Assembly (NCBI GenBank): GCA_018657525.1
Contig: JABHWZ010000003.1
Span: 14,840 to 78,839 of the forward strand
Reading direction: 5' to 3'
Source: an archaeon
Lineage (GTDB): Archaea; Nanobdellota; Nanobdellia; Pacearchaeales; GW2011-AR1
Length of the DNA stretch: 64,000 nt
The notes beneath the pieces were generated by a model that saw only the letters and a program-made list of their open reading frames with translations, did not search any database and was not told the DNA's origin. Below are positions 11,412 through 42,987 of this stretch, one piece after another (position 1 is the first letter of the stretch; every line of letters starts with the position of its first letter). The position numbers and the translations under genes are program-made.

Positions 11412-11434
11412 TTCTCTTTTTCACAATTCGCATT

Positions 11435-11481
11435 CACGCTTAAAAATTTTATTTTTACCTCCGGGATTAAATTTCGCGTAA
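11435..11481. repeat. module F1 (CACGCT..AAATTT..CCTYCGG..AATTTCGCGTAA), copy 1
   Basis: Aligns by eye with 22365..22411 and partly with 32078..32113 (inside polB). Confidence 0.7.
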
Positions 11482-21772: not shown

Positions 21773-22176
21773 TGGGATTTTTTGACGAAGACGGATTTGG
21801 AATAGAAGAGTTTTTTAAGAATTTTAATGGGGGAGAAAATGTTGCGGAATATACTACTGTTGGTTCAGACGGAAAAAAAAGAACTATGCGAAATACTCCT
21901 AGAAATTCAAAGGGTATTCCTGCGAAGCAGGTTGTTTCTCAAGATGAAGTTTTTTTTATTTTTGATTTTTCTGGAGAAAATAATGTTCATGTTGAAGTTG
22001 GAGATGAGTTAGTTTCTAATAATTATGGGGAAAAAGTTTCAACTGGACAAAAAGTTTTGAATATTAAATCATCTAGTAAAGATTTGGGAAATTTTGTTCT
22101 TTCTAAAAAGATTAAATTAAAAACGCTGGAGTTTACATTTAATAATGGAATCTTGGAGGTAAGTTTTAAAAAATGA
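21772..22176 (+). CDS. small Hsp20/alpha-crystallin-like protein
   Basis: The beta-sandwich-like C-terminal half ends in FNNGILEVSFKK (compare the NGVLxI motif). Sits between the two cdc48 genes with ATGA-type overlaps. Confidence 0.45.
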   Translation: MGFFDEDGFGIEEFFKNFNGGENVAEYTTVGSDGKKRTMRNTPRNSKGIPAKQVVSQDEVFFIFDFSGENNVHVEVGDELVSNNYGEKVSTGQKVLNIKSSSKDLGNFVLSKKIKLKTLEFTFNNGILEVSFKK

Positions 22177-22459
22177 AAAACGGATTAATGTTAGATATTG
22201 TTAAACCTAAAAGACACCCGCTGGTTTCTTTTGAACTTCCTCAAAGCTCGGCTCGGCGATTTCCAATTGCCTCCTGCGAAATCGCAAGGTTGTTAAGACA
22301 CTCGTTGATTTCTTTTGAACTTCCTCAAATATCGGTTCGGCAACATCTTTCAATAACTCAAGTCCACGCTCGTAAATTTGAAATTTGCCTTCGGAAGTTA
22401 ATTTCGCGTAAACTTTCGGCCTCCGAGGAATGTTGTGGGCTTCAACAAGGAGATAGAAA
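22173..22459 (+). repeat. 287-nt composite insert beginning with a diverged copy of the cdc48-2 start; the track ORF 22173..22463 is not considered a real gene
   Basis: ATGAAAAACGGATTAATGTTAGATATTGTT versus ATGAAAAATGGATTGATGTTAGATATTGTT at 22460. Internal 50-nt repeat (22213-22262 and 22297-22346), the GGAGGCAA-loop hairpin, and module F1. Confidence 0.85.
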
Positions 22460-24709
22460 ATGAAAAATGGATTGATGTTAGATATTGTTGAAGCAGAAAA
22501 AGATTATTTTGGGAAAAATGTTGTTACGTTGTCATTTGGTGATATGAAAAGATTAGAAATTGTTTCAGGAGATATTTTAAAAGTTAACGGAGAAAAGGAG
22601 TTATATTTTCGAGCAATTAGAACTAATTCCGAGGAAGGAACTATTGGGATTGATGGAGTAGCTAGATCAGTTATTGGGATTTCTGTTGGGGAAAAAGTTC
22701 GAGTTGAAAAAGCTAAAAAATTAGACAAACTAAAAGGGATTACTCTTTCTATTTTGCCAGATAATAATTATAGCAATGATCAGTTAAAGAGTTTTAATGC
22801 TCAGTTAAAAGAAAATGAATTTTTTAGGAAGGTGTTGATTGATTCTCCATTTACTTTAGGTCAGAAAATTTCTGTTCCAACTAATGTGGGCAATTTGACT
22901 TATGTTGTTTCAAAGTGTTTGCCGAAAAAATGTAGTTCGGGAATTGTTGCGGAAGGTACTCGTGTTGATGTAAGTGAGGAGGTTGGTGAGGGTTCAGGAG
23001 TTAATGTTTATTATGAAGATATTGGAGGGTTAAAAGAAGAGATAGAAAAGGTTAGAGAAATGATTGAGTTCCCAATGAATCATCCAGATATTTTCCAGAA
23101 GTTAGGGATTAGTGCACCGAAGGGAGTTTTGTTGACAGGCCCTCCTGGTACAGGTAAGACTCTTTTAGCGAAAGCTGTTGCAACTGAAACTGATGCTAAG
23201 TTTATTTCAATTGCAGGTCCAGAGATAATGAGTAAGTATCATGGGGGATCTGAAGAAAATTTAAGGGCAAAGTTTGAGGAGGCAGAAAAGAATTCTCCTG
23301 CGATTATTTTTATTGATGAGATCGATGCAATTGCTCCGAAGAGAGGAGAGACTCATGACCAGTCTGAGAAAAGGGTTGTTACTCAGCTTTTGACTTTGAT
23401 GGATGGTTTAAAGTCTCGAGGGCAAGTTGTGGTTATGGCAGCGACAAATCGTCCAGAAGATTTAGATGAGGCTCTTAGGCGGCCAGGAAGATTTGATCGG
23501 GAGTTAAGACTTAATCCTCCTTCTGATGCAGGTAGAAAAGAAATCTTGAAGATTCATACTAGAAATATGCCGTTAGGTAATCGGGAGGAAATTTTGGAAG
23601 AGTTTTCTAATAAGACTCTTGGTTATACTGGAGCTGATTTAGAAGTGCTTTGTAAAGAAGCAGCGCTTCGAGCGGTTAAACCATTTTATGCTAAGTTGGT
23701 GGGGATAGAGGATTCAGAAGAAGAGGCCTCGTCGCTGGATTTAAAGAAACAAGAATTGATTTCTCGGGTTGTTGTAACCAAAGAGCATTTTGATTATGCT
23801 ATGAAAATTGTGGAGCCGTCAGCGATGAGAGAAGTGTTGATTAAAAAACCTAATGTTAAATGGGAAGATATTGGAGGTCTTGAAAAAGCAAAGGATAAAT
23901 TACGTGAATTAGTTGAATTGCCGTTGGTGCGTCCGGATTTATTTGATATGGCTGGGATAAAACCCTCAAAAGGCGTTTTAATCTCTGGAGGACCTGGAAC
24001 GGGGAAGACACTTTTAGCGAAGGCAATTGCAAATGAGGCTAAGGCAAATTTCATTTCAGTAAAAGGACCTGAGCTGATTAGTAAATGGGTTGGTGAATCA
24101 GAAAAGCATGTTAGGGAAATTTTTAAGAAAGCTAGGCAAGTTGCACCAGCAATTATTTTCTTTGATGAGTTTGATTCAATTTCAAAATCTCGGGGGGGAA
24201 GTTTGAATGATTCTTCTGAGAAAGTTGTTAATCAGTTATTGACTGAGCTTGATGGAATTGAAGAGTTGGAAAAAGTTATTGTTATTGCGGCGACTAATCG
24301 GAAGGATTTAATTGATCCTGCTGTTCTTCGTCCTGGGAGAATTGATGCTTTGGTTGAATTAGAGATTCCAGATAAAGATACTCGAAAAAAGATTTTTGAA
24401 GTGCATACTAAGAAAATGCCTTTAGATAAATCTGTTAAATTAGATGAGTATGTTTCTAAGAGTGAAGGTTGGACTGGTGCAGACATTGAGGCTGTTTGTA
24501 GAAATGCTGGGATAAATGCGATTAAGGAAGTTTACAAGTTGGATAGTTCTAAAGGATTTAAAATTACAAAAAAAGATTTTGATTATGGCTTAGAAACTGT
24601 AGCACATTCTTCTGGAAGAGAAATTTTTGTAGATAAAAAGACTGGGAAAATTTCTGGGGCAGGGAAAAAAGGAAATTTAACTGAGAATAAAAAAATTAAG
24701 AAGAAATAA
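22460..24709 (+). CDS. cdc48: Cdc48/VCP-like AAA+ ATPase (paralog 2)
   Basis: Same two-AAA architecture ([16 protein letters not shown]). Confidence 0.95.
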
Positions 24710-26583: not shown

Positions 26584-26629
26584 TATTTTTAATCCTTTAT
26601 ATTCTCTGGAAAATTTGTGTTGTTTCATT

Positions 26630-26734
26630 GCGAGACAACCCCTTGTTTTCCTCGCGCTCCTTCCTCGAAGCTCTGATACTCCGAAGGGCACGAGAGGGTA
26701 GCATCTTTAAATTGCCTCCGTCGGATGCCACATG
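26630..26734 (-). repeat. 105-nt structured element, copy 1 (immediately 5' of an ATG on the minus strand)
   Basis: Near-full-length match to 42612..42716 in the opposite orientation. Contains the GGAGGCAA-loop hairpin and the GGGCACGAGAG module. Confidence 0.9.
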
Positions 26735-26760: not shown

Positions 26761-26966
26761 TTTGATATTTTCATTCTTTTATTTTCCTAAATTTACTTAT
26801 GAAGAACCCCTCTGCTCGTGAACCTTCATTGTTATTGAATCTTCTGCTTGTCATTTTATTTTTTTGAATTTTGAAATGAAGAACCCCTCTGCTCGTGAAC
26901 CTTCATTGTTATTGAATCTTCTGCTTGTCATTTTATTTTTTTGAATTTTGAAATGAAGAACCCCTC
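26761..26966 (-). repeat. triplicated NSUN gene 3' end (77-bp units) plus a codon-diverged displaced end
   Basis: Units start at 26799, 26876 and 26953. See findings. Confidence 0.9.
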
Positions 26967-30252: not shown

Positions 30253-32871
30253 TTAAAAATCTCCAAGAGTCATTTGTTTTTTGCCCTCGAGAATTTCTTT
30301 GATATTGACATCTAAAACTTGGAAAATATTTTCTACTGCCGGAAGAATTTGTTTGTTCAAATAATATTCAATTTCGTATTCTCCTTTTTCAGTTGGAAGT
30401 TTTACTTTATCTCGTACGAGTTTTACTTTTTTCCCTCCTGTCTCGGCGATGTAATATTCAATTAAATTCCCTTGAGAAACAGGGATTTCTTGTTCTTTCA
30501 TTTTTTTTGCTGCAATCACATGTGGGCCCTGAGCTTTGTATTCTGAGAGGGGTTTTTTCAGTTGGGTTTTAATCATTAATTCTTTTAATTTAATTTCTCT
30601 GTTTTTTATTTTTTTTACAATTTCTTTGATATAAATTAAGGCTTTTTTTTCGTTTCCGTCTTTTAAAACTAACTGGATAATTTTGTTTTGTGTTTTTCTT
30701 GCTAGTTTACACCAGTCTCTTCGAACTGTTTCAAAACCGCGGATTTTTATTTTGTCTTCTTTGTCGATTAAGGCGTATTTCTTTTTCGCACCTGTTGTTC
30801 CTGCGCGAGTTGTTACCCAAAGTCCTTTTTCAAAAAATCCTTCAAGTTCGAGTTCCATTATTCCTGGAAGTTTGGAGTTGATTTGTTTTAGAGTTTCTTT
30901 GACTTCTTTTTTGGTCTTTTCGTTGATTAAAAATGCGATTGAATCTGTGTCAGAGTAAATTGTTTTGTAGCCTTCTTTGTCAATTCCCTTGATTGTGTTT
31001 TTAATGAAGTCGCGACTGATTGCGGTTGCTGCTCCAGAGGCTTCAGGACAATAATATCTTGCGCCGAAAAATCCCATATAACCATAAGATGCGTTTGCTA
31101 AAAGTTTGAAAGCATTGCTTCGCGCTTTTTTTAAAACGTCTGGTTTTTCAAACAGTTCTTTTTTGTATTGTTTTCTTTTTTCAATTATTTCTTTTAATAG
31201 TTCTGGAAAGAAACCTGTTTTTTTTGTGAAGTAAACTTTTTTTCCCAGGACTTCAGCTTCGACGGAATCTTTTTCTTTTTTTTCTAGGAGGGTTGATTTT
31301 GATAAATTAAATGTTACTATTATGCTTGGCCAAAAACTTGTGAAATCAAACATTGCAATGTTTTCGTATAAATTTGGGATTGGTTCGAAGACAAATGCGC
31401 CTTCGTATTTTTCTCTTTCTCTTCTTTCTTGGATTTCTTTGTAGCCTGCTTTTCTTTCTGGAATTTCGTTGAAGCGTTTTAAATTATGTAGAATATAATC
31501 TTCAACATTTGAAGACATTCCTTTCCTTGAGACATCAAAGGGGGGTTCTTGAATTACTCTTGAGAATTCTAAAATGTCTGGCCAGAATTTATTGAATAAC
31601 TGGAATGTTAAGAGTGAATCGTGCAAATTGTATTCATAATATTTCTCCCATTCGTTTTCTTTTATTTTTGAAGAGTGTTTAAATTCAAAGTCTTTTTTTG
31701 TGTCGCCTAAAAATTCTTTTGAAACTTCATTTAGCGAGAGAGTTTCTGATTGCATGTACTGAGAGTATGCGGTTCTGATGAATTTTAATAAGTCAATATG
31801 GGGAATGCCTTTTATTTTGCATTTTAAATCTCTGCCTCCGCCGGTTCTTGAAAATCTTGGTTGTGAGTCGTCGAGTCCTAGGTTTAATTTAATGTTGAAT
31901 TTTTGAGCTCTTGCTTTTATGTAGGGTAAGTCAAAACCGTCTGAATAATATCCTACTAAAAAATCAGGGGAGATTTTTTTTACATATTCAATAAATTTTT
32001 CAATTAGTTCTGCTTCGTCCTCGACATATTCCACTTCATTTGATTTATGTTCTGATGGCTCCTGACCTCGCTCGGAATTTTTATTTTTACCTTCGGAATT
32101 TTTTCTCGCAAAATCACTCGTTTTCCATGTTATAACTTTTTTGAAATTGTCTGAAACTAAAGACACCATAAGAATTTCTCCTTCCCCGATTCCGATTTCA
32201 TCTGTTTCAATATCAAAGGCAAGGGTTTTTGGAGTAAAAGTTTTTTTGATATCCTTTTCTCTAATTTTTTTTATTGTGTTTACTTTTATGCACATATCAA
32301 CATCAAGTGCCATGTCAATGCCTCCGAATTCTTCTGAGTTGTTGAGTAATTCTCCTTCAATTTTATACCAGTTTAGTGGGACTAATTCTTTTTCTATAAT
32401 GTAATGGCTGATATATCCCAAGTCATAGCCTCTTCTTTTGTCAATTTCTGGGAAGTCGATGTGGCTTGCAATGTCGTGCATGTCTTTATAGTTTGTCGCG
32501 AATACTTTTAGGGCCTGGACTTTTTGCCCAAGGAAATTTTTTTCATGTAACTCTACTTTTTCAACTTTTGTTTTTCTGCCTTTTACATCTAATTGAATTT
32601 TAAGAATTTTTTTAGTTATTTTTTCAACACTGCTCAGTGTGCCTTTCTTTGCGGACCGATCGGCATACTCCAAAAAGTTTGAATTCTGGAGCAAGTGCTT
32701 GGGTGTTTTGATTTGAGAAATTTTTGGTTTTAGAATTGCCCAGAGATAAACTGGACATTCATCTATAATGCAAATTTGTTTGCCTGTTTCGTTTCTTCCG
32801 ATGATTCGCGCGTAGTTTCTTCCTTTAAAATCAAAGTAATCGTAGTCAATTGGGATGAATTTTGTTTCCAT
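30253..32871 (-). CDS. polB: family-B DNA polymerase
   Basis: Exo motifs FDIET and YSDGFDLPYI. Pol motifs SFWPSIIV, KLLANASYGY and YSDTDS. C-terminal QMTLGDF is PIP-like. Start at METKFIPIDYDYF; upstream track codons are rejected. Confidence 0.95.
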   Translation of the reverse strand: METKFIPIDYDYFDFKGRNYARIIGRNETGKQICIIDECPVYLWAILKPKISQIKTPKHLLQNSNFLEYADRSAKKGTLSSVEKITKKILKIQLDVKGRKTKVEKVELHEKNFLGQKVQALKVFATNYKDMHDIASHIDFPEIDKRRGYDLGYISHYIIEKELVPLNWYKIEGELLNNSEEFGGIDMALDVDMCIKVNTIKKIREKDIKKTFTPKTLAFDIETDEIGIGEGEILMVSLVSDNFKKVITWKTSDFARKNSEGKNKNSERGQEPSEHKSNEVEYVEDEAELIEKFIEYVKKISPDFLVGYYSDGFDLPYIKARAQKFNIKLNLGLDDSQPRFSRTGGGRDLKCKIKGIPHIDLLKFIRTAYSQYMQSETLSLNEVSKEFLGDTKKDFEFKHSSKIKENEWEKYYEYNLHDSLLTFQLFNKFWPDILEFSRVIQEPPFDVSRKGMSSNVEDYILHNLKRFNEIPERKAGYKEIQERREREKYEGAFVFEPIPNLYENIAMFDFTSFWPSIIVTFNLSKSTLLEKKEKDSVEAEVLGKKVYFTKKTGFFPELLKEIIEKRKQYKKELFEKPDVLKKARSNAFKLLANASYGYMGFFGARYYCPEASGAATAISRDFIKNTIKGIDKEGYKTIYSDTDSIAFLINEKTKKEVKETLKQINSKLPGIMELELEGFFEKGLWVTTRAGTTGAKKKYALIDKEDKIKIRGFETVRRDWCKLARKTQNKIIQLVLKDGNEKKALIYIKEIVKKIKNREIKLKELMIKTQLKKPLSEYKAQGPHVIAAKKMKEQEIPVSQGNLIEYYIAETGGKKVKLVRDKVKLPTEKGEYEIEYYLNKQILPAVENIFQVLDVNIKEILEGKKQMTLGDF
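32622..32672. repeat. hairpin element AACACTGCTCAGTGT..TTTGCGG.., copy inside polB (in frame)
   Basis: Aligns with 39901..39951. Confidence 0.8.
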
Positions 32872-32967
32872 GTTTTGGTAAAAGACTGTAGATTTATATA
32901 TTTGATTGTATTTTTTGTTACCCCTCTTAAATGCTAAATACCAAAGATTTATATAGTCCTGGGCCCT

Positions 32968-33429
32968 ATGAGTAATATGGATACAACTGGTTATTCGGAA
33001 GGATTTCTCTCCAGTGAAGGAGGAGCACTTGTATCTGTTGGTGTCGCAAATCAACCAGATCCTGTTGATTATGATGCTTTGGAAGTAAAATATGGCCGAA
33101 CAAAGGATCAAGAACCTAGCGTTAAAGAATTGATTGATATTTCTGAAGAATCGTGTAGGGGAAGACAAGTACTTTTAGGAGATGAATTTGAGACTCTTGA
33201 AGATAATGCTGAGTTAAGGAAAGCTAGAAATTTATTGGGCAGATGTGATTTTGCTTGGGGTGTTTGGGGCGAAGATACTTGGAGGATATATGGTTTGCCA
33301 GTTCTTAGAGCGGTTGAAAAAGAGTATGGTCTTGCACCTATTAAATCTAGGAAAATTCCTCTTTCAAAGAAACTTTGGATGAGAAGAGATTTTTTAGCTA
33401 ATAAAATAACTGAACTGCAACATCAATAA
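32968..33429 (+). CDS. hypothetical acidic protein
   Basis: 153-aa ORF divergent from polB. No motif. Confidence 0.35.
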   Translation: MSNMDTTGYSEGFLSSEGGALVSVGVANQPDPVDYDALEVKYGRTKDQEPSVKELIDISEESCRGRQVLLGDEFETLEDNAELRKARNLLGRCDFAWGVWGEDTWRIYGLPVLRAVEKEYGLAPIKSRKIPLSKKLWMRRDFLANKITELQHQ

Positions 33430-33468
33430 ATATTTATATTCTGTTTTTCTTAGTTTTATTAATAGAAT

Positions 33469-33561
33469 AAATTTAATCAGCCCAATTCGCTCTCGCTCAT
33501 TTTCCCAACCGCGAGTCCTATTTGCTGAAATTTCATAGAAATTTCAGTTATGAATAAATTT
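33469..33561 (+). mobile_element. MITE-like element A, copy 1 (93 nt, 10-11 nt terminal inverted repeats)
   Basis: AAATTTAATCA...TGAATAAATTT ends, internal CAGCCCAATTCGCTCTCGCTCATTTTCCCAACCGCGAG, and a subterminal hairpin. Confidence 0.75.
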
Positions 33562-33602
33562 ATTAAAAAGTAAAAGGAATAAAATTTAAAAATAAAAATA
33601 AA

Positions 33603-34640
33603 ATGGGATTAAATATTCGAGATATTATACCGAAAAAAGAATTGCAACTTGAGAGTTTGAATGGGAAGACTCTTTGTGTTGATGCGTTTAATACTTTATA
33701 TCAGTTTTTGTCAAGTGTGCGGCAGATGGATGGGACGCCTTTGATGGATTCTAAAAAACAGATTACTTCTCATCTTTCTGGGATTCTTTATCGTAATGCG
33801 GCTTTGTTAGAGCAAGGAATTAAATTAGTTTATGTTTTTGATGGGAAGGCCCCAGATTTAAAAGCGAAGACTCACAAAAAGAGAAAGGAAGCTAAAGAAC
33901 TGGCTGCTGAAAAATATGAAGAGGCAAAGCAAGAAGAGGACATTATGAGAATGAAAAGATATTCTAGCCAATTAGTTCGTTTAGATGATGAGATGATTAA
34001 AGAGAGTAAAGAATTATTGATTGCTATGGGAGTGGCAATTGTGCAGGCACCGTCAGAGGGAGAAGCAGAGGCAGCTTATTTGGCAAAGAAAAAAGAAGTT
34101 TATGCTGCAGCGAGTCAAGATTATGATAGTTTGCTTTTTGGAACTCCTCGTTTAATTCAGAATTTGACTTTGGCAAGAAAGAGAAAAACTATTTCAGGTT
34201 ATCGAGAAGTAAATCCTGAATTAATTGATTTGCAAGAAGTTTTGGATAGATTGGAAATTGATTTAGATCAATTAATTTGTTTGGGAATTTTGGTTGGCAC
34301 AGATTATAATCCGAAGGGGATTCCAGGGATTGGACAAAAGAAGGCATTACAAATTGTTCAGAAATTTAAACAGCCGGTTTTAATTTTTAAGGAAATCAAT
34401 GAAAAAATTTCTTCTTTGCCAGAGGAAGATCAATTTGATTGGAAAGAAATTTTTGCATTGTTTCATAAACATCCTGTTAAGGATGTGGAATTTGATTTTG
34501 GGAAAATTGATGAAGATAAAATTCGTGAAATACTTGTGACAAGACACGAATTTTCTGAAGAGAGAGTTGAAAAACAGATTGAGAGATTAAGGAAAATTGA
34601 AGAGAAAGGAAAACAAAAAGGTTTGGATAAGTGGTTTTAA
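33603..34640 (+). CDS. fen: flap endonuclease 1
   Basis: MGLNIRDIIP.., VFDG, EGEAEAAYL, GTDYNPKGIPGIGQKKA (H3TH). C-terminal PIP box QKGLDKWF. Confidence 0.95.
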   Translation: MGLNIRDIIPKKELQLESLNGKTLCVDAFNTLYQFLSSVRQMDGTPLMDSKKQITSHLSGILYRNAALLEQGIKLVYVFDGKAPDLKAKTHKKRKEAKELAAEKYEEAKQEEDIMRMKRYSSQLVRLDDEMIKESKELLIAMGVAIVQAPSEGEAEAAYLAKKKEVYAAASQDYDSLLFGTPRLIQNLTLARKRKTISGYREVNPELIDLQEVLDRLEIDLDQLICLGILVGTDYNPKGIPGIGQKKALQIVQKFKQPVLIFKEINEKISSLPEEDQFDWKEIFALFHKHPVKDVEFDFGKIDEDKIREILVTRHEFSEERVEKQIERLRKIEEKGKQKGLDKWF

Positions 34641-34645
34641 GAAAC

Positions 34646-34738
34646 AAATTCAATCAGCCCAATTCGCTCTCGCTCATTTTCCCAACCGCAAACCCTAATT
34701 GTAAAATTTCTTTTAGAAATTTTATTATGATTGAATTT
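34646..34738 (+). mobile_element. MITE-like element A, copy 2
   Basis: AAATTCAATCA...TGATTGAATTT. The first 50 nt are nearly identical to copy 1. Confidence 0.8.
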
Positions 34739-34791
34739 AGAAATTAAATATGGAATAAAAAATAATTGAAATATATTTTACAAAATAAAGT

Positions 34792-41636: not shown

Positions 41637-42055
41637 AAGATTTTGATGACTTTCTAAAAAGAGGGGTGGTTAAAAAACAATCTGTTAATGAGCCAAGAGC
41701 TAAAGATTTGGTTTCTGAAGCTGAAAGAAAATTAAGTTCAATGAATCGTGTTATTAAGAAAATAGGAATTGATGACGCAAATGCTAATGATATTATTGAA
41801 AATTGTTGCGATATTATTCTTAGTTTAATACGTTCGAAAATGTTTTTGAAGGGGTTTAGCGCTTCTGGAAGTGGAGCTCATGAAGCAGAAGTTTCTTTTT
41901 TAAAAAAATTGGAATTTAATGAACAACAAATCGAATTTATTAATTCTTTGAGATATTTTAGGAATGGAATTTTGTATTATGGAAAACGATTTGATAAAGA
42001 ATATGCAAAAAAAGTAGTCAAATTTTTAAAACAGGTAAAGGTTAAATTAAAATGA
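41633..42055 (+). CDS. HEPN-like domain protein (partner of the MNT)
   Basis: 140-aa all-helical protein with a 4-nt overlap with the MNT gene. The R-x4-H position reads FRNGILYY (His replaced by Tyr). Confidence 0.5.
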   Translation: MKDFDDFLKRGVVKKQSVNEPRAKDLVSEAERKLSSMNRVIKKIGIDDANANDIIENCCDIILSLIRSKMFLKGFSASGSGAHEAEVSFLKKLEFNEQQIEFINSLRYFRNGILYYGKRFDKEYAKKVVKFLKQVKVKLK

Positions 42056-42987
42056 GATCTTATAGTGTTTTGGGGAATATAGCGTTGGTTAATTTTCCGA
42101 GGGAATTTAAAGGAAGCAAAATTAATTTTGCTAAGAAAATTTTGAAAGAGAACAAATCAGTTAAGACTGTTTTGGAAAAAGTGGGAAAATTTTCTGGGAG
42201 GTTGAGGAAGATTTCAACTAAATGGTTAGCGGGGGAAAAAAATAAAGAAGTTTTGTATAAAGAAAATAATTGTGTTTTTAGATTTAATATTGATTCAACT
42301 TATTTTTCTCCGAGGCTGAGTAATGAGCGGAAAGAGATTGCAGGATTGGTTAAGAAAGATGAAAATGTTTTAGTTATGTTTGCAGGGGTGTCACCGTTTT
42401 CAATTGTTATTGCGAAGAATTCAAAAATTGGGCGTAGTTCTGCGTACCCTAAATTGCGGAATGCTAAGGTATATTCAAATGAGATAAATCGCGAAGCAAA
42501 TAAATACGCGAAGTTAAATATTGAATTAAATAAATTGAAAGAGAGGGTTGAATTGTTGCCTGGTGATATCAAAAAAGTTACTGAGAAAATTTTGAAGGGG
42601 TGGAGGGAAAACCATGCGGTATCTGTAGGAGGCAAAGAAAAGATGCCGCCCTCTCGTGCCCTTGAGGGTATCAGTGTTTCGAGGAAGGAGCGCGAGGAAA
42701 ACAAGGGGTTGCCTCGCTTTGATGTGATTGTAATGCCGCGACCGCAGTTGAAAGATAGTTTTTTGGAGCAGGCGTTTAAGTTGTCAAAACGCGGAACGCG
42801 AATTTATTATTATGATTTTTGTAAAATTGATGCTCTTGAAGGAACAAAGTATTTTGATTTGATTATTAAGAAGATTAAAGATGAGGCAAAAAAAGCTGGG
42901 AAGAAAATTAGAATTGTGAATAAGAAATTGGCGGGAGATATTGCTCCGTATAAGTATCGTGTGCGGGTTGATTTTATAATTTTGTAA
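42052..42987 (+). CDS. Trm5/Taw22-like tRNA (m1G37) methyltransferase carrying two in-frame repeat insertions
   Basis: YFSPRLSNER, VLVMFAGVSPFSI, YSNEIN, and FDVIVMPRP (NPPY-equivalent). Confidence 0.7.
   Translation: MRSYSVLGNIALVNFPREFKGSKINFAKKILKENKSVKTVLEKVGKFSGRLRKISTKWLAGEKNKEVLYKENNCVFRFNIDSTYFSPRLSNERKEIAGLVKKDENVLVMFAGVSPFSIVIAKNSKIGRSSAYPKLRNAKVYSNEINREANKYAKLNIELNKLKERVELLPGDIKKVTEKILKGWRENHAVSVGGKEKMPPSRALEGISVSRKEREENKGLPRFDVIVMPRPQLKDSFLEQAFKLSKRGTRIYYYDFCKIDALEGTKYFDLIIKKIKDEAKKAGKKIRIVNKKLAGDIAPYKYRVRVDFIIL
42612..42716 (+). repeat. 105-nt structured element, copy 2, in frame inside the Trm5-like CDS
   Basis: Encodes ..HAVSVGGKEKMPPSRALEGISVSRKEREENKGLPR.. between conserved Trm5 motifs. 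Confidence 0.9.

Follow-up and report, generated by a model that had tools for sequence, protein, structure and literature searches.

Location of the element

The window described here is a stretch of 64,000 nucleotides (nt) of an archaeal genome of the order Pacearchaeales (GenBank assembly GCA_018657525.1, contig JABHWZ010000003.1, positions 14,840 to 78,839). It carries five copies of a probably mobile repeat of 80-105 nt that is built from two hairpins, H1 and H2. The copies are located at the starts of a PUA/Nip7-like gene and of pheT, inside a Trm5/TYW2 gene, and in tandem near the start of a CDC48 gene. At 26700-26729, 42617-42646, 60566-60598 and 22258-22283 an initial annotation of the window had reported hairpins with stems of 6 bp; all four are present and paired, and the stems are in fact 8 bp long.

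The copies were scored with R1, a covariance model built from the window copies aligned with their relatives; copies A to D are recovered in the window with E-values from 1e-18 to 5e-5. Copy A (26629..26731, minus strand) belongs to subtype I, carries an internal insertion of 18 nt and lies upstream of the PUA/Nip7-like gene. Its H1 on the minus strand consists of the 5' arm GUGGCAUC (26731-26724), the loop cgacGGAGGCAAUUuaaa (26723-26706) and the 3' arm GAUGCUAC (26705-26698), with one G.U pair. H2 (26655-26630, minus strand) is followed by one A and then by the ATG of the PUA/Nip7-like gene at 26628. A TATA-like sequence, AAAATAAA, ends 21 nt before an ATG overlapping the first base of H1. 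Copy B (42616..42717, plus strand) is also of subtype I and lies in frame inside the Trm5/TYW2 gene 42052..42987. Its H1 (42616-42649, plus strand) has the arms GCGGUAUC (42616-42623) and GAUGCCGC (42642-42649), one U.G pair and the loop GGAGGCAAAG; its H2 occupies 42692-42717 (plus strand). Over a length of 110 nt, copies A and B share 84% identity.

Copy C (60514..60598, minus strand; subtype II; 88 bits with R1) lies upstream of pheT. Its H1 (60598-60566, minus strand) has the arms GCAACUUC (60598-60591) and GAAGUUGC (60573-60566). H2, GCGAAGGAAACCgcaGGUGUCCUCGC (60539-60514, minus strand), is directly followed by the pheT ATG (60513) and contains GGUG 7 nt before the AUG. Copy D (22209..22285, minus strand; subtype IV; 71.5 bits) is antisense to the surrounding plus-strand genes, with an H1 (22285-22256, minus strand) of arms GCGAUUUC (22285-22278) and GAAAUCGC (22263-22256) and an H2 at 22232-22209. 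Copy D' (22290..22388, minus strand; 24.5 bits, E = 5e-4) is degenerate and stands in tandem with copy D; its H1 region overlaps a copy of another repeat, D7, at 22348-22411. The motif GGAGGCAAWW occurs six times in the window, compared with 0.74 expected, and none of 100 shuffles reached six. A hairpin at 58828-58847, which the initial annotation had listed as a related form, does not belong to the element: it is a separate hairpin, GGCAATT-TATTTT-AATTGCC (R1 6.3 bits, E = 8.5), in a gap of 40 nt between convergent genes.

Collection of copies and searches

The element was collected in 146 copies from genome and metagenome contigs of Pacearchaeota, Woesearchaeota and Nanoarchaeota. The window and 80 loci centred on Trm5 (1.2 Mb) gave 27 R1 matches with E < 0.01; the Trm5 homologues of the window protein were from metagenome-assembled genomes of the same three groups, and one of them, encoded on an ENA contig of 101,681 nt, is identical to the window protein. 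Many of the contigs originate from groundwater of the Hainich site, for which metatranscriptomes are reported (10.1101/2025.05.30.656956). Metagenomes were scanned with a pattern in which the commonest H1 stem and the loop were fixed. At least 119 stretches matched this pattern, and the first 100 of these loci contained 119 R1 copies. No match was found in the viral contigs scanned. At the gathering threshold, Rfam 15 identified two tRNAs in the whole window and no family for the element; for copies A and C at E up to 10 it returned noise of 5-14 bits without any tRNA-like match. Full-text literature searches gave no description of this repeat family. Neither the window nor any locus examined contained the 3' end of a 16S rRNA, and the anti-Shine-Dalgarno sequence was assumed from general archaeal knowledge. 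The genes following copies at start codons were mostly named from N-terminal sequences, not by profile search.

Structure and covariation

The element is arranged in the order H1, linker, purine box, H2, followed after 0-2 nt by the neighbouring functional unit. H1 forms the 5' part, about a third of the element, with a covarying stem of 8 bp and a loop of 14-18 nt, cNNCGGAGGCAAUUaaa. In the window the H1 loops contain GGAGGCAA(UU), except for that of copy B. The linker reads CCnUYCmGyG and the purine box GAGGAAG or GAGGGAA. H2 has a covarying stem of 10-12 bp with a conserved inner part, AAACC-NNN-GGUKU, and a loop of 3-5 nt; its outer stem occurs as GCGAGG/CCUCGC, AAAAAA/UUUUU, AAAGA/UCUUU and GGU..AAG/CUU..ACC. 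Discrete subtypes differ mainly in H2, and several of them coexist within one genome.

That the stems covary around a conserved loop had been proposed from the window and was confirmed in larger samples of 39 and 119 aligned copies, where 15 of the 16 pairs modelled show compensatory double changes. Between 88% and 90% of the cells are paired, compared with 37-58% when the partners are slid, and none of 500 shuffles reached the observed values. The H1 loop is Shine-Dalgarno-like, as the initial annotation had stated. Among 40 copies not picked by the stem-fixing pattern, 24 match AGGAGGUGAUC over at least 5 nt (4 expected), in either of two registers, GGAGG and AGGUG. Both loop types are present in contig L082, so that co-evolution of the loop variants with the genome was rejected.

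Further structural candidates were also discarded. On inspection, a K-turn or K-loop in H2 is not indicated, with no tandem G.A/A.G on the unbulged strand, and a pseudoknot of the H1 loop with the linker or the H2 3' strand could form in some subtypes and is not conserved. Pairing of the 5' flank with the GAGGAA box as a closing helix scored 5.09, not above the 5.05 of a composition-matched control. Copies A and B both contain GGAGG, 10 nt and an ATG, from which a small protein encoded by the element was considered; it was rejected, since the majority of the differences between A and B alter the encoded residue, a stop comes early in copy C, and the ATG is missing elsewhere.

Some copies are themselves interrupted. 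An insert of about 21 nt, TCTTTAAGACCTACTCGGTCG, recurs in the linker in L126, L134, L161 and L195, and nested inserts of 30-50 nt, which differ from one another, are present in copies of L081, L155, L162 and L198.

Strand preference was assessed from base pairs and from folding. At H1 positions 1-7, about 9 G.U pairs were counted against 2-3 A.C pairs in a reading of the copies not picked by the stem-fixing pattern; counts over all eight positions and counts from model-fitted alignments disagree, both being biased by alignment or choice of sample. The G-U pairs of two window stems, from which the initial annotation had deduced a functional RNA strand, are a weak argument: at start codons the predicted stability of the two strands is equal (24 of 48), and in tRNA genes it is the opposite strand that is transcribed. 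Folded in the sense of the initial annotation, the window copies reach z-scores of -1.0 to -1.7. Of the copies in tRNA introns, 10 of 14 are more stable in the tRNA sense, by 1.6 kcal/mol, and anticodon arms of precursor tRNAs with the intron fold with z = -3.6 to -4.1. Since stability is equal at start codons and favours the tRNA sense in introns, neither strand can be singled out as the functional RNA, and both maintain the pairing.

Copies at start codons

Of the 146 copies, 48 precede the ATG of a real gene by 0-4 nt and share its orientation; in one classification scheme, two copies abut a gene start in the opposite orientation. The genes concerned encode PheT, small and large subunits of RFC, a HerA-like ATPase, S3Ae, an L37Ae-type ribosomal protein, S10, SRP54, EF-1 alpha and beta, Spt5, Mre11 and SMC. 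At the pheT start a copy is found in the window and also in L110, L141 and L173, which carry other subtypes than the window. The element had been described as ending directly at the start codon in two loci of the window. This is true of copies A and C, but what ends there is H2 and not the hairpin with the GGAGG loop, which lies 65-90 nt upstream of the ATG and is not the Shine-Dalgarno sequence of the gene.

Of 1371 open reading frame (ORF) starts in the window and loci L001-L199, 376 have a TATA box as is typical of leaderless genes, with its end exactly 21 nt ahead of the ATG. The box is TTTATAAA-like, and its geometry is very rigid across these sequences. Genes located behind an element have no TATA box 21 nt before their ATG. 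Instead, 19 of the 48 start-codon copies, copy A included, have a TATA box with a predicted start site 2-39 nt upstream of H1, against a background of 5%. From the position of this TATA box, the element is predicted to be transcribed in these copies as a new leader of about 90-120 nt. A promoter inside the element was rejected, as the box is missing at 21 nt before the ATG of the gene and subtype I is GC-rich there. No sharp peak of TATA boxes was seen 21 nt before H1, where insertion exactly at the old leaderless start would place them.

Native ORFs without a TATA box have a GGAGG that ends 9 nt before the ATG. H2 carries AGGU at a spacing of 8 or GGUG at a spacing of 7, which is the same register. 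With the assumed anti-Shine-Dalgarno sequence, a Shine-Dalgarno sequence at native spacing is provided by H2 and not by the H1 loop at 65-90 nt. We infer from these spacings that a formerly leaderless gene obtains from H2 the Shine-Dalgarno sequence it would now need, which would explain both the abutment at 0-2 nt and the orientation bias.

Copies also occur directly 5' of a tRNA gene on the same strand (6 copies), directly 3' of a tRNA gene on the opposite strand (4 copies), and abutting the 3' end of a convergent gene (19 copies). The possibility that copy A joins the parts of a split RsmF gene was discarded: the downstream gene looks like a stand-alone PUA/Nip7-like gene, and the C-terminus of the upstream RsmB/F is normal.

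Copies inside proteins

About 20 copies are located inside long ORFs in the orientation of the ORF, and all of them are in frame and free of stop codons. Removal by mRNA splicing would impose no such constraint on the frame, and most of these copies lie in the non-intron orientation. In the Trm5 of the window, copy B corresponds to residues from about aa 188 to aa 222 and ends just before the FDVIVMPRP motif; the solved structure of Trm5b (5yac) has no residues aligned to aa 177-221 of the query. Many Trm5 orthologues have no insertion, and eight carry the element at exactly the same site. Three subtypes are represented among these eight copies, and their reading frames differ, P0010 using the +1 frame of the same nucleotides. 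The frame stays open at all 67 Trm5 sites examined, whose lengths differ only by multiples of 3. As judged from this reading frame, copy B is most likely translated. Other proteins with in-frame copies are PolB, Nth, RsmB/F (just before FDRILIDAPCSG), Ogt (before PCHR) and Cbf5. In PolB the same site is occupied in five contigs, with differing peptides and different reading frames. The use of different frames at the same Trm5 and PolB sites indicates that conservation acts at the nucleotide level.

Other insertions were seen in Trm5. The window protein has a second, smaller one at 42420-42470 (aa about 125-138), SKIGRSSAYPKLRNAK; the corresponding residues of orthologues are SKA--KK, and none of the other 24 orthologues in the alignment has the insertion. 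At the site of copy B, L019, L021, L038 and L072 as well as P0052, P0075, P0105 and P0117 have longer inserts that do not match the element, among them ...SLRSQIDKKLL... and inserts ending ...QRANLPKFD. In general, this position seems to be a hotspot of in-frame insertion.

Copies in tRNA introns

Fourteen tRNA genes have a canonical intron, at position 37/38, that consists of the element in reverse complement. Twelve of these genes were called by ARAGORN, which found element-bearing tRNA genes only when introns of up to 200 nt were allowed, and two initiator tRNAs were checked by hand. The tRNA is always on the strand opposite to the element (14 of 14). In the tRNA sense the intron consists of the 5' splice site, H2', the linker, H1' (loop AAUUGCCUCC) and a tail, and this core is common to tRNA-Glu, Phe, Lys, Gly, Ser, Asp, Arg and initiator Met. 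In the modelled fold of a tRNA-Glu arm (L086), the intron tail is predicted to pair with the anticodon region. The position 37/38 and the exon-intron pairing of bulge-helix-bulge introns are found for the reverse complement in tRNA genes and nowhere else; such pairing would permit cleavage by the splicing endonuclease.

The window itself contains a tRNA-Glu(CUC) gene (56106-56297, minus strand) with an intron of 117 nt at the canonical position. This intron is unrelated to the element, and the gene was missed at the Rfam gathering threshold. The ORFs 55974..56261 and 56240..56536 overlap it and are probably spurious.

Empty and occupied sites

The HerA-like gene provides both empty and occupied forms of the same site. 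In most of the 57 loci found, CAATTAAAAAT is followed by 21 nt and the ATG. In L021 the same promoter and 21 nt are followed by 'AT', the element and an ATG; in L001 and L062 the order is promoter, 21 nt, ATG, about 22 nt, element and ATG. In the window, the start of the CDC48 gene is duplicated on the plus strand. The upstream duplicate, ATGAAAAACGGATTAATGTTAGATATTGTT (22173..22202), opens an ORF of 96 aa (22173..22463), and the downstream duplicate (22460..22489) is the true start of CDC48 (22460..24709). The duplicates are identical at 28 of 30 nt and flank the reverse-complemented copies D and D' in the manner of a target duplication. The 96-aa ORF is the duplicated start read through D and D', and it stops in an ATGA that overlaps the true start.

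Flanking direct repeats with a score of at least 10 accompany 7.9% of the copies, compared with 0.7% in the control. They are 11-33 nt long (30 nt at 22173/22460); 0-4 nt separate H2 from the downstream repeat, and 0-30 nt separate the upstream repeat from H1. The left junction of start-codon copies is ATG in 22 of 48 and NTG in 34 of 48, a preference for NTG that copies in tRNA introns do not show. Some copies are arrayed in tandem, as element-ATG-element-ATG-gene. From genome to genome the subtype found at a given gene start (pheT, S3Ae) or at the Trm5 site can change, and copies at non-orthologous sites can be 97-99% identical. The empty and occupied sites, the target duplications of variable length and the subtype differences at the same site, all read from sequence, point to mobile DNA. 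A dedicated RNA gene does not agree with these sites, at which a mobile sequence has been inserted.

Origin and function

[quoted passage not shown] Of the initial interpretation, covariation, the Shine-Dalgarno-like loop and abutment to start codons are retained; a single functional strand and a free-standing hairpin are not. The copies are inserted in genomes with mostly leaderless genes and fall into three classes, and insertions would persist only where they are harmless. In the first class, the element lies at or just after the start codon in gene orientation; the native promoter would transcribe it as a new 5' leader, and the 3' half of H2 would give AGGU or GGUG at native spacing and so keep the gene translated. 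In the second, it lies in frame at tolerant protein sites and would be translated, as RPE are. In the third, it lies reversed in canonical tRNA introns next to the 5' splice site, and splicing would remove it. Pairing in H1 and H2 would be kept for the mobility of propagating lineages or for RNA folding of the transcribed strand.

Several observations weigh against this reading. No transposase, recombinase or autonomous parent copy turned up, the window ORFs not having been scanned for transposases, and among the at least 119 pattern matches none has H1 and H2 separated by a gene. The target duplications span 3 to about 33 nt, a spread that agrees with no class of transposase known, and most copies have no clear duplication. 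Similarity between copies is 0.67 within contigs and 0.71 between contigs; as copies within a contig are not more alike, there is no sign of recent bursts, and recent proliferation within a genome is unsupported. Copy C of the window is 88% identical to the Trm5 copy of L005, and the Trm5 proteins of the two genomes are about 60% identical. A selected function would be just as compatible with such conservation, with the precise abutment at 0-2 nt and with recurrence at the same housekeeping genes. Because the scan pattern fixes the H1 stem and loop, the metagenome sample is biased in its context frequencies and its H1 statistics.

The selected function could be that of a cis-acting 5' leader RNA, with the H1 loop as a 30S standby site, H2 presenting or masking the Shine-Dalgarno sequence, and the copies in ORFs and introns as by-products. 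This explanation is unlikely, with some real chance of being correct. It accounts for the 48 copies in gene orientation at an ATG, for the recurrence at pheT, S3Ae, RFC, SRP54 and HerA-like genes in several contigs, for the native promoter just upstream of 40% of the start-codon copies, and for strong sequence conservation across distant genomes. The two Shine-Dalgarno-like registers of the H1 loop and the AGGU/GGUG of H2 in the native register would also be expected. However, orthologues often have no element and a plain leaderless promoter in its place, and the host genes share no pathway. A leader RNA is also difficult to reconcile with an element that is tolerated in frame in at least six proteins and reversed in tRNA introns, with the same site being occupied by different subtypes, or with the lack of folding asymmetry at start codons (24 of 48) and the modest z-scores of the folds (-1.0 to -1.7).

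An origin as a tRNA intron, or a shuttling of the element between tRNA introns and genes, is improbable. According to this idea, units of intron length, from the 5' splice-site end (H2') to the variable 3' tail, would have been pasted into first codons and tolerant coding sites. Pasting would bring target duplications of variable length, and leaderless genes would become Shine-Dalgarno-led. The element would then be a mobile 'leader cassette', possibly RNA-mediated; in a variant of the idea, released introns would act on the leaders as antisense RNAs. To our knowledge, no retroelement has been found in archaea of this kind.

Two RNA-based proposals deserve little credence. In the first, which is very doubtful, the element would be an RNA processing signal: H2 and one unpaired base would mimic a tRNA acceptor/T minihelix and be cut by tRNase Z or RNase P at the 3' end, which would set free a leaderless mRNA or a tRNA whose 5' end is mature. 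The AUG is indeed only 0-4 nt away from the 3' end of the element, six copies stand directly at the +1 of a same-strand tRNA (e.g. L099, L130 and L086), and the genome is strongly leaderless. Such a cut would, however, sever the essential Trm5 and PolB at their in-frame copies; Shine-Dalgarno spacing explains the abutment more simply, and H2 has a loop of 3-5 nt instead of a T-loop, with no tRNA-like match in Rfam at E up to 10.

The second proposal, antisense action in trans, merits about as small a chance. Excised introns (loop AAUUGCCUCC) would form kissing complexes with sense copies in mRNA leaders and tune translation. Both orientations are predicted to be transcribed in different contexts, kissing-loop antisense RNAs are usually built with a conserved loop on a variable stem, the intron-sense folds are stable, and some contigs (e.g. 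L153, L139 and L086) hold both kinds of copies. Complementarity needs no selection, though, since any sequence is complementary to its own reverse complement, and loops that differ within L082 have not co-evolved. None of the 27 matches with E < 0.01 in the 1.2 Mb of Trm5-centred loci is a tRNA-intron copy, and the tRNA-Glu intron of the window has no relation to it.

Chance hairpins or ordinary intergenic terminators with a shared purine-rich loop, to be considered in an AT-rich genome with many hairpin-capable spacers where H2 is flanked by runs of A and T and where the hairpin at 58828-58847 is such a case, are practically refuted by the motif count, the covariance-model E-values, the 146 covarying copies and the copies in coding regions, and a terminator would have no conserved loop, linker and second hairpin.

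Comparison with known systems

The selfish mobile repeat favoured above has several known counterparts. RPE, reportedly described by Ogata et al. in 2000, and the palindromic coding repeats reported in the archaeon Methanocaldococcus jannaschii share with it a size of about 100 nt, hairpins with compensatory stem changes, in-frame insertion into unrelated genes at tolerant sites, occurrence in intergenic DNA and RNA genes, and the lack of a transposase of their own. In-frame insertion free of stops, with empty orthologues and conservation at the nucleotide level, was found here as in RPE. Unlike RPE, the element has two unrelated hairpins instead of one long palindrome, prefers leaderless start codons in one orientation and brings a Shine-Dalgarno sequence, occurs in tRNA introns in the opposite orientation, and has target duplications of variable length. 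Sequence homology to RPE is not expected, because the hosts, archaea and alpha-proteobacteria, are unrelated.

MITEs, the repetitive extragenic palindromic (REP) sequences and bacterial interspersed mosaic elements (BIMEs), and derivatives of IS200/IS605 are likewise short, structured, non-autonomous multicopy repeats with subfamilies and presence/absence polymorphism at orthologous sites. The element differs from classical MITEs in that its ends (GCGAUUUC... / ...GGUUGUUUUCA) are not inverted repeats and its flanking repeats vary from 3 to about 33 nt. With regard to IS200/IS605 derivatives and REP, H1 and H2 are unrelated in sequence and are not matched end hairpins, and no conserved GTAG/CGTC tag lies outside the stem. 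On the left flank, where such elements would have a fixed target of 4-5 nt, most start-codon copies have NTG, unlike those in tRNA introns. No partner transposase, such as the Y1 enzyme expected for IS200/IS605, was seen for the element, although no transposase search was made.

Bulge-helix-bulge introns are said to have spread by transposition among tRNA genes in Thermoproteales. The element is similar in that one intron core is found in many tRNA genes at position 37/38, followed by a tail complementary to the anticodon. It differs in being far commoner outside tRNA genes, in mRNA leaders and coding regions, and mostly in an orientation in which it could not be an intron. The leaders of operon-internal archaeal genes are comparable in their Shine-Dalgarno sequence, the AGGU/GGUG of the element lying 7-8 nt before the AUG in the register of GGAGG (9 nt). 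In the element this sequence sits in the 3' strand of H2 of a portable 80-nt unit, and a second Shine-Dalgarno-like loop is present 65-90 nt upstream.

DPANN genomes are very small and gene-dense, which leaves little room for selfish DNA. The element illustrates a route by which a repeat may spread in such compact genomes, in our reading by persisting only where it is spliced out, translated harmlessly in surface loops of Trm5, PolB and other proteins, or where it rebuilds a ribosome-binding site. It accounts for length variation and odd low-complexity inserts in conserved DPANN proteins, for spurious ORFs such as 22173..22463, and for tRNA genes missed by standard tools. One shared sequence links the evolution of tRNA introns with that of mRNA leaders. 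If mobility were RNA-mediated or dependent on the splicing endonuclease, this would constitute a new transposition route.

Other repeats in the window

The D7 family consists of a 64-nt repeat at 11418-11481, 22348-22411 and 32050-32113. Its minus strand has a degenerate H1-like hairpin with the loop CGAAGGCAAAUU or CCGGAGGUAAAA. One D7 copy is inside the 971-aa ORF 30253..33168, and another is part of D'; the repeat is perhaps related to the element and has diverged from it. Immediately upstream of copy A, at 26777-26966 (minus strand), about 2.5 tandem copies of a 77-nt unit carry the final 36 nt of the RsmB/F gene again, with its stop codon (…EGFFISKFKKIK*); an inverted repeat ATGAAG...CTTCAT is present in each unit. 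Direct repeats of 97 nt (33466-33562 and 34643-34739, 77% identical) flank the gene 33603..34640 and contain CAGCCCAATTCGCTCTCGCTCATTTTCCCAACCGCGAG; they may represent another repeat family or a flanking duplication. A direct repeat of 136 nt (58140-58275 and 58325-58460, 83% identical) overlaps the start of the ORF 58392..58826.

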